Positions 53,760 through 55,331 of a stretch of DNA of 64,000 nt are shown here, in pieces (positions within the stretch are counted from its first letter, which is position 1; each line of letters starts with the position of its first letter). Source of the stretch: an uncultured Candidatus Saccharibacteria bacterium (GTDB lineage Bacteria > Patescibacteriota > Minisyncoccia > Phycocordibacterales > UBA9973); NCBI GenBank assembly GCA_964544225.1, contig CAZIZK010000001.1, forward strand, positions 143,477 to 207,476, written 5' to 3'. The notes below the pieces were generated by a model. That model was given only the letters and a program-made list of their open reading frames with translations. It made no database searches and had not been told where the DNA came from. The position numbers were made by a program, and so were the translations under genes.

Positions 53760-55331
53760 ATGTCATTTTCCCGAGTATATGCTGCACAGCCATATTTACT
53801 CAAAGGTAAATTGGTAACAGTCGAAGTGGATATTACAAAGAATACCCTTCATGCATTTACTATGGTTGGCCTACCGGACAAAGCCGTCGATGAAGCAAAG
53901 GACCGCATGGCCTCTGCACTAAAGAACTCGGGCTTCAACTCTCCAAAAAGTCAGAATCAAAAAATAGTTATATCACTCTCACCAGCAGACCTGAAGAAGG
54001 AGGGTGCGTATTTCGACCTGGCTATCGCATTGGCGTATTTATTGTCTGCCGAAGAAATAGATTTCAATGCCGAGGGTCGTATATTCCTAGGTGAGTTAGC
54101 CCTCAATGGTGAACTGCGCCCGATTCGTGGGGCACTACCCCTGGCCCAAGAAGCAAAGAGGCTCGGTTATAAAGAGATATTTCTTCCACGTGCCAATGCT
54201 GTTGAAGCAGCACTTGTAAGTGGTATTGATGTATATGGTGCAGACACATTGAATGATGTTGTAGATCATATCCACCAAGTCAAATATGATAAGAAGGGTA
54301 ACCCTCTGGAGCCAGAAAGGAAGAAGTTAATAAAAGAAAAGGAAGCAGTAATAGAGAAAGTTGTAAAAGATTTCAAGACAGATTTCCAAGATATCCGTGG
54401 ACAGGAAAGCGCAAAGAGGGCACTAGAAATTGCGGCCGCAGGTGGCCACAATATTGCACTGTCAGGCCCACCAGGTACCGGCAAGACCATGCTTGCCCGC
54501 GCATTTTCACACATACTACCCGACTTGGACAACGAAGATATACTGGAGATCACAGGCATCCACTCGATAGTTGGCTTACTCGACGGTGCACTCGTCACCG
54601 AGCCACCTCTACGTTCACCGCACCATACAGCAAGCTATGTATCGATTATCGGTGGTGGGGCAAATGTGAAGCCAGGCGAAGTGACTCTAGCTCACAAAGG
54701 TGTATTGTTCCTCGATGAATTTCCAGAATTTGAAAAGAAAGTTCTAGAAAGTTTACGCCAGCCACTGGAAGACAACATGGTGTCGATATCACGTGCTCGT
54801 GGTTCTGCTACTTTCCCTTAGAACTTTATACTCATTGCTGCCATGAACCCATGCCCGTGTGGACACAAAGGCAACAAGCAAAAAGCCTGCATTTGTAAAC
54901 CAAACGATATTGATAGATACAATAGAAAATTGTCTGGCCCCATCATGGACCGTATCGATATATGGGTTACAGTCGGTGCGGTAGAGTACGACGCACTTTC
55001 CGAGACAGCGCCAAGTGGTACAAGTACAAATATAATAAAGGAGCGTGTCCGTATTGCCCGCGATATCCAAGGCAAGAGGTTAAAGCAAGCAACCCGCAGG
55101 ATAAAACTAAATAGCGAGATGAATGTAAAAGATCTGAACACTTTCGCCCCAATTTCAAAAGATGTAAAAGATGTTTTGAACCAAAGTGCCGAGAAGCTCC
55201 AGCTGTCGGCCCGCGCATATCACCGCACTATCAAACTTGCCCGTACTATTGCCGATATTGAACACAGTGCTGAGATAGAGATCCCTCATATCCTCGAAGC
55301 CCTGCAATACAGGCCAAAGATAAATCAATAG
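53760..55331 (+). pseudogene. comM: YifB/ComM-family Mg-chelatase-like AAA+ ATPase, interrupted by a single in-frame TAG at 54819-54821
   Basis: ORFs 53760-54821 and 54843-55331 are in the same frame. Translation ...[25 protein letters not shown]... is colinear with intact homologues ([17 protein letters not shown]). Walker A GPPGTGKT and the CPCG zinc motif are present. Confidence 0.75.

Follow-up and report, generated by a model that had tools for sequence, protein, structure and literature searches.

The locus described here lies in a window of 64,000 nucleotides, by which we mean the whole stretch of DNA that was analysed, and begins with an open reading frame of 353 codons on the forward strand (53760-54821) that ends in TAG at 54819-54821. 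Beyond this codon the same frame stays open for 169 further codons, up to another TAG at 55329-55331. Joined to a conceptual read-through product of 523 amino acids with an X at codon 354, the two parts score 548.9 bits against the YifB family model TIGR00368, for which the cutoff is 362.4. The domain order is that of a normal ComM protein, with PF13541 (ChlI, Lon-like) at residues 21-146, PF01078 (AAA+) at 208-411 and PF13335 (Mg_chelatase_C) at 421-518, and the Mg_chelatase profile PF01078 runs unbroken across the junction: its positions 1-147 fall on the upstream piece and 149-205 on the downstream piece, and the stop takes up exactly one profile position. This confirms the initial annotation, which had described an in-frame amber codon splitting a YifB/ComM protein that is colinear with its intact homologues. 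With TAG at codon 354, comM provides no single polypeptide frame holding all ATPase motifs, and a gene caller, run on a Logan contig, likewise called two products, one of 353 aa and a remnant of 128 aa. The features of the locus and of its surroundings, among them several of the many DNA-processing and pilus genes of the window, are collected in Table 1.

The extended -10-like box in front of the comM start codon, TGTTATAAT, is probably the promoter of the gene, and a transcript starting from it would be leaderless or near-leaderless. This box also occurs in L003, the contig of the closest intact relative, and in L018, and the next relative, L123, has TGATACAAT instead; the box is not called by a simple sigma-70 scan and has no -35 match.

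Table 1. Positions of comM, its in-frame amber codon and other features of the window.
Feature	Position	Strand	Basis or remark
286-aa ORF matching the C-terminal part of ComEC	1918-2778		TIGR00361 positions 425-663
ComEC	5673-7013		DUF4131 and Competence domains
RecJ	7926-9650		
PilC-like T2SSF	17082-18299		
PilB-like T2SSE	18312-20063		
Repeat copy B	45526-45596	-	second of the two copies in the window
DksA-like gene	53260-53610		
Repeat copy A	53648-53717	+	within the insert upstream of comM
TGTTATAAT, extended -10-like box	53745-53753	+	6 nt 5' of the comM ATG; sequence and alignments
comM/yifB, codons 1-353	53760-54818	+	ORF list, translation, Pfam PF13541 and PF01078 (profile positions 1-147)
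comM in-frame amber TAG, codon 354	54819-54821	+	sequence; ancestral codon Ser TCN by comparison with L003 and L123
comM/yifB, codons 355-523 and natural stop	54822-55331	+	Pfam PF01078 (profile positions 149-205), PF13335
Second TAG, tandem terminator directly after the natural comM stop	55332-55334	+	TAG TAG also in L003
UvrD-family helicase	62053-63969		

A comparison of the orthologous loci in sister genomes, which the initial annotation had proposed, revealed serine codons and not TAG at position 354. The closest intact relative (protein P0001, contig L003) has TCA at this codon, and the aligned blocks of its contig show about 95% identity to the window; in comM, 107 of 1,572 nucleotides differ, which corresponds to 93% nucleotide and 98.7% amino acid identity. 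P0001 is also the best protein match, intact and with 99% identity over 523 amino acids, and as the single member of its 90% cluster it differs from the window in seven residues, codon 354 included. The next relative (P0002, contig L123) shares 87% amino acid identity and uses TCC, and the six closest proteins are all alike in the motif at this site, with serine as the residue. Using a degenerate DNA pattern that leaves codon 354 free, we found 119 GTDB species genomes, which together with L003 carry alanine in 68 cases, serine in 45 (four of them with TCG), cysteine in six, threonine in one and a stop in none; L123 adds no stop either. The same pattern with TAG, TAA, TGA or TGG at codon 354 had no match in 241 million metagenome records, and the best 120 protein clusters are all full length with 520-549 amino acids. 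Relative to its intact orthologues, comM thus carries a premature stop at a conserved sense position, as is typical of a pseudogene, and the immediate ancestor of the TAG codon was, judging from the two relatives, a serine codon (TCN). The initial proposal that TAG replaces Ala or Arg therefore needs to be adjusted: alanine is correct for distant homologues only (A337 of Legionella ComM), arginine never occurs, and the close relatives have serine.

To place the break within the protein, we aligned the gene to Legionella pneumophila ComM (PDB 8rxd) and transferred the residue roles described for that protein (PMC11612176). The intact allele P0001 matches it over nearly its full length with E = 1.3e-113. 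In the cryo-EM structure, Walker A spans residues 218-225, the catalytic glutamate is E302, sensor 3 is R316 and the pre-sensor-1 beta hairpin covers residues 324-336, followed further downstream by R381 and the arginine finger R463, with a zinc finger embedded in the AAA+ domain (PMC11612176). On the upstream piece of the window's gene we accordingly find Walker A (GPPGTGKT) at residues 236-243, Walker B (LFLDE) at 316-320, the sensor-3 arginine R333 and the pre-sensor-1 beta hairpin at 341-353. Codon 354 aligns to A337, just past this hairpin, and everything that follows is located on the downstream piece: the strand of sensor 1 (LIAAMNP), a zinc finger rich in Cys (CPCG...CIC), the trans-acting arginine finger R485, to which Legionella R463 aligns, and the Mg_chelatase_C domain. 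Because sensor 1, zinc finger, arginine finger and C-terminal domain are all missing from it, the 353-aa product is very probably inactive, without ATPase or helicase function.

ComM of Vibrio and Legionella is an ATP- and DNA-dependent hexameric helicase that promotes branch migration in transformation (10.1101/147660, PMC11612176). With its TIGR00368 score of 549 bits and the near-full-length alignment of the intact allele, the gene described here resembles the ComM proteins of Vibrio cholerae and L. pneumophila; unlike them, its frame is broken at codon 354, and the role of the patescibacterial protein is predicted from sequence. In the Patescibacteria lineage, ComM is strongly conserved, with 75-87% amino acid identity across more than 100 clusters and a dN/dS of about 0.02.

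The truncated gene was not found in this assembly only. An exact look-up of the 353-aa protein returned two separately assembled Logan contigs, L001 (SRR13208906, 8,322 bp, contig seen in two samples) and L002 (SRR26856460, 1,787 bp), which match the window from end to end with 100% identity, TAG included, although one of the runs is possibly also the source of the NCBI assembly; besides, a 344-kb NCBI contig has an entry for the 353-aa ComM. Over 8.3 kb, the TAG-bearing sequences do not differ from one another at all. Compared with L003, the part upstream of the stop shows a dN/dS of 0.020 (dS 0.32) and the part downstream a dN/dS of 0.021 (dS 0.37), so that neither relaxed selection nor secondary lesions, as expected of an ageing pseudogene, were seen downstream of the stop. 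Polarised with L123 as outgroup, the changes on the window branch amount to two non-synonymous and six synonymous ones downstream versus two and 18 upstream (Fisher p = 0.55), where one of the two upstream "non-synonymous" steps is part of a two-step Arg-to-Arg codon change. Since about 3.6 non-synonymous changes per synonymous one are expected under neutrality, purifying selection has acted on the downstream part during practically all of the time that separates the window from L003.

This unrelaxed constraint would fit a very young lesion and would likewise be expected of a functional gene that is read through, and by itself it does not prove decay; because all TAG-bearing sequences are identical, they have no divergence among them in which decay could show. 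As an alternative to a very young stop, the codon may be tolerated since full-length protein is still made, and the dN/dS data alone would not separate the two. What favours a young pseudogene is the combination of a stop that is not conserved, the use of TAG as a normal terminator, and a window with neither a suppressor nor a stimulatory signal. Taken together, we consider it highly probable that comM has suffered a real and very recent nonsense mutation and is a young pseudogene in one strain, which the source names of the database hits mark as Patescibacteria/Paceibacteria-like. The simplest path leads from a serine codon TCN at position 354 via the synonymous TCG to TAG by a single C-to-A transversion. 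Translation would then halt after residue 353, the last of the pre-sensor-1 beta hairpin in the AAA+ domain, and the truncated ComM would retain the Lon-like domain and both Walker motifs but should not form an ATP-hydrolysing hexamer, so that the branch-migration step of natural transformation would be lost or severely reduced in the TAG strain.

The use of TAG in this lineage bears directly on the alternatives. The 54 gene-like ORFs of the window end in TAA (46), TAG (7) or TGA (1). Two genes 5' of comM, separated from it by the DksA-like gene, lies a 299-aa gene whose stop is TAG in the window and L003 but TAA, at the same codon, in L123, and comM itself ends in a TAG-TAG tandem. When each stop codon in turn was treated as sense in a six-frame scan, comM alone among the genes of the window proved to be interrupted by TAG; the other TAG-bridged case consists of two adjacent pilus-operon genes that share a frame by chance, as also occurs with TAA. 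TAG is thus an ordinary stop in this lineage.

Readthrough of an in-frame UAG has well-known precedents, such as pyrrolysine, the A1 protein of phage Q-beta and suppressor tRNAs. The comM gene resembles these systems in that a single in-frame stop interrupts an ORF which is intact and conserved in all other respects, and a near-cognate tRNA, or an amber-suppressor tRNA from another part of the genome, might still yield full-length ComM, perhaps in smaller or regulated amounts. Such a scenario would agree with a dN/dS that is as low downstream of the stop as upstream, and also with the recovery of the allele in at least two different sequencing runs, hence with an allele that is not rapidly purged. 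Moreover, the serine codon is one step from TAG via TCG, and a tRNA-Ser(CGA) whose anticodon had changed to CUA would put the original serine back. Unlike in programmed readthrough, however, the stop is kept in no relative, and the zero divergence of the TAG-bearing sequences explains the low dN/dS equally well by recency. The four tRNAs of the window (Pro, Gly, Arg and Gly) include none with a CUA anticodon, and no stimulatory RNA structure was found at the stop, as the 101 nt from 54800 to 54900 fold with -15.5 kcal/mol and hence no better than shuffled sequences (mean -18.6, z = +1.0); an Rfam search had no match in 53400-55500. Besides, an efficient suppressor would extend the seven of 54 proteins whose genes end in TAG, a codon that even swaps with TAA in the 299-aa gene. 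We therefore regard readthrough or suppression as unlikely. Some decoding of the amber codon, for instance by a Ser-inserting suppressor tRNA encoded outside the window or by condition-dependent readthrough, with ComM throttled rather than abolished, is in our view decidedly unlikely. If it were true, natural transformation in this CPR bacterium would be governed by a switch at the level of translation, and the recombination of incoming DNA would be throttled.

An error in the sequence, with the true gene being intact, would require only one wrong base to create the TAG, and metagenome-assembled genomes do contain single-base errors. However, a different pipeline assembled the same sequence from at least two other runs, the TAG is two positions and not one away from the nearest serine codon, TCA, and no intact allele of the TAG strain exists among 15 billion proteins. 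Because the independently assembled contigs L001 and L002 carry the identical sequence including the stop, an assembly or consensus error is very unlikely, and the view that the TAG is genuine is well supported.

We also considered a functional split of the gene, in which the N-terminal piece of 353 residues would pair with a re-initiated C-terminal piece to give an active ATPase. The downstream piece can be translated only if the TAG is read through or translation restarts, and its first ATG, at 54843, lies in frame 21 nt past the stop; in addition, the downstream part is still fully conserved. Against this, the break cuts through the alpha/beta core of the AAA+ fold, between the pre-sensor-1 beta hairpin and the sensor-1 strand, and a restart at 54843 would begin within the latter and delete half of it. 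No Shine-Dalgarno-like sequence was seen upstream of this ATG, and no relative has such a split among the best 120 protein clusters, which makes a two-piece enzyme very improbable. Genome-wide reassignment of TAG to an amino acid has nothing in its favour beyond the single in-frame TAG and was rejected as extremely improbable already within the window, where TAG ends seven of 54 genes at positions matching their orthologues, interchanges with TAA at one gene end, closes comM twice in a row and breaks no other long ORF. Our data are hence in line with the early dismissal of such a recoding. From the three origins that the initial annotation had left open, the recent nonsense mutation stands, given a strain-specific TAG, its normal role as terminator and a downstream part that has not yet decayed, while the evidence speaks against the sequencing error, in view of the same TAG in independent assemblies, and against programmed readthrough, in view of a stop absent in relatives and a window without suppressor or structure.

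Since ComEC had also been described as unusual, it was suggested that the whole transformation pathway is being remodelled. Our analysis yields no evidence of remodelling. ComEC is encoded by a single intact ORF of 446 amino acids with the DUF4131 and Competence domains, the ORF that overlaps its 5' end is an RNase H and not a ComEC fragment, and the metallo-beta-lactamase C-terminal part of ComEC is matched by the separate 286-aa ORF listed in Table 1. The closest 120 ComEC homologues listed all have the same two domains, and nearly all comprise 410-450 amino acids. Because of this agreement among the homologues listed, the two-domain form appears to be the normal architecture of the clade, old and clade-wide, and unrelated to the strain-specific TAG. 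A second lesion in ComEC was accordingly rejected: the overlapping ORF belongs to another gene, and every one of the listed relatives shares the 446-aa form.

In this context, the cultivated patescibacterium S. epibionticum offers a useful comparison. Its comEC, comF and dprA gave no fitness contribution in Tn-seq, ComEC is required for transformation, and ComM goes unmentioned in this work (PMC10633639). Within-species loss of transformation is described as common in other bacteria (PMC11472951). Comparable strain-level losses of competence genes are reported in PMC11441513, PMC11472951 and PMC12955456, including the disruption of comM by AbaR islands in Acinetobacter baumannii, comEC broken by transposable elements in Piscirickettsia, and transformability lost within species in Legionella and Acinetobacter. 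What these cases share with the window is a competence gene knocked out in one lineage and intact in close relatives, with comM as a recurrent target. In contrast to the AbaR and transposon cases, the lesion described here is a point nonsense mutation, the host is an uncultivated CPR bacterium, and no island or insertion sequence was found in or adjoining the comM gene of the window. Because com genes are fitness-neutral in S. epibionticum (PMC10633639) and within-species loss of transformability is common in other bacteria (PMC11472951), a strain-level knockout of comM is not surprising.

The comM nonsense allele is thus an ordinary kind of event, one more strain-specific loss of a competence gene as is well documented in cultivated bacteria. 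Its value is modest: nature has here knocked out comM in an uncultivated lineage of Patescibacteria whose ComM is otherwise very strongly conserved. The uptake genes in the window, which encode ComEC, the pilus ATPase PilB and the platform protein PilC, stay intact. Persistence of the strain in its environment would mean that it can do without recombining imported DNA over short periods, which would fit the fitness-neutral com genes of S. epibionticum (PMC10633639). For annotation purposes, comM is best marked as one pseudogene instead of two genes.

Apart from the amber codon, the surroundings of comM hold a structured repeat element. Compared with L003 and L123, the window has an insert of about 95 bp between the DksA-like gene and comM, which takes the place of a plain terminator hairpin and contains one of two repeat copies in the window. 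We rejected the idea that this insert is a second strain-specific blow to comM, as L018 has an orthologous copy at the same DksA-comM spacer, diverged but with a homologous outer stem. A 23-nt pattern taken from the repeat core matched 43 metagenome contigs and no viral contigs, and a covariance model revealed several copies per contig, up to four in 13 kb. The core of about 62 nt is nearly invariant and consists of two hairpins closed by a short helix, one with tandem G-A pairs and a GACG loop, the other A/U-rich with an AAGCUUC loop. This core caps a long outer stem, in most cases of 13-41 bp, whose sequence is different at every locus. Among 56 copies, compensatory changes occur in 12 of the 18 core pairs, in an alignment that was fitted to the model; none of 500 shuffles reached the observed values, and slid controls gave at most two pairs. 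In the outer stems, G-U mismatches outnumber A-C mismatches by 53 to 23, which hints at an RNA strand.

The copies are always intergenic and abut the 3' ends of genes in either orientation. A function as a 5'-UTR riboswitch was rejected because the downstream genes, judged from their N-terminal sequences, are unrelated (MiaA-like, Pth-like, Ddl-like, PNPase-like and others), and half of the copies have no downstream gene at all. Neither Rfam nor a literature search by sequence string returned a match for the repeat, which is undescribed and more unusual than the comM lesion in this neighbourhood. Candidate identities are a structured RNA embedded in a terminator, a REP-like repeat or a small non-autonomous mobile element.

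Besides the interrupted comM gene, our data reveal a high-copy intergenic repeat element that is undescribed, with no match in Rfam or in the literature. Its almost invariant core of about 62 nt (GGGGUUUUGCGAGCGACGGCGAGCAAACUUCAGGAUUUUUUAAGCUUCAAAAAAUCCGUACC) folds into a three-helix junction; it caps a long hairpin stem, mostly 13-41 bp, whose sequence is specific to each locus. Covariation was found in 12 of the 18 core pairs across 56 copies, in an alignment that was fitted to the model, and in the outer stems G-U mismatches (53) are more frequent than A-C mismatches (23). 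Using the core as a search pattern, we found matches in 43 metagenome contigs and in none of the viral contigs, with a density of as many as four copies in 13 kb. All copies are intergenic, and each of them adjoins the 3' end of a gene. Candidates for its nature are a structured RNA, a REP-like repeat and a mobile element. The positions of the two copies in the window (A and B) are compiled in the table, together with those of the other features discussed.

Repeat element, comparison sites and neighbouring features (window coordinates unless a contig is named)
Feature	Position	Strand
Repeat copy A	53636-53730 (core 53648-53717)	+
Repeat copy B	45515-45620 (core 45526-45596)	-
Further repeat-element loci	L125-L167; L018 4504-4573; L025 5936-6006; L068 2855-2925	
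Copy B site compared with L003	45489-45647 vs L003 1843-2511	
Large proteins without Pfam match, downstream of comM	57347-61617 vs L003 13581-17064	
Extended -10-like box upstream of comM	53745-53753	+
ComEC, 446 aa, DUF4131 + Competence	5673-7013	-
Separate 286-aa ORF matching the ComEC C-terminal MBL domain	1918-2778	-
Long same-strand operon with PilB-like (T2SSE) and PilC-like (T2SSF) genes	11889-24858	-
Sole TGA-terminated gene, fatty-acid desaturase homologue	35180-36256	+

Upstream of comM, copy A takes the place of a plain terminator found in the relatives L003 and L123, and a further contig, L018, carries an orthologue of copy A at the same position. Two independent Logan contigs identical to the window (L001 and L002) begin at the very same base, 53667, within the core of copy A, and the shared start suggests that the assembly graph branches here. 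Such a branch would stem either from additional, nearly identical copies at other sites of the genome or from a mixture of strains, some of which carry the insert and some of which lack it.

In the window and in L003, L123 and L018, only 6-7 nt separate an extended -10-like box from the ATG of comM, and this proximity suggests that the comM mRNA may be leaderless. The box reads TGTTATAAT in all of these except L123, which has TGATACAAT; it was not called by a simple promoter scan.

The comparison with L003, a 95%-identical relative, also uncovered differences between the strains. In the epimerase/aminotransferase interval, L003 has, on the opposite strand, an additional ORF of 169 aa with unknown function, whereas the window holds repeat copy B alone. 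Downstream of comM, the large Pfam-less proteins of the window measure 643 and 733 aa and those of L003 652 and 506 aa, and the nucleotide alignment ends at window position 58719; this region looks strain-variable.

The ComEC protein of the window has no metallo-beta-lactamase (MBL) domain. About 3 kb away, on the far side of guaA, the separate ORF matches positions 425-663 of TIGR00361, which correspond to this C-terminal domain. Among the matches listed, all 120 of the 120 closest homologues are two-domain ComEC proteins.

Stop codon usage is heavily skewed (TAA 46, TAG 7, TGA 1), and no ORF in the whole window is broken by TGA, which is therefore rare rather than reassigned. The pilus operon additionally encodes several proteins of 400-600 aa with no Pfam match or only Ig, fn3, CarboxypepD_reg or Por_Secre_tail domains. 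Several of its adjacent genes share one reading frame, separated by a single stop codon and a few bases, and such neighbours are a trap for readthrough scans.
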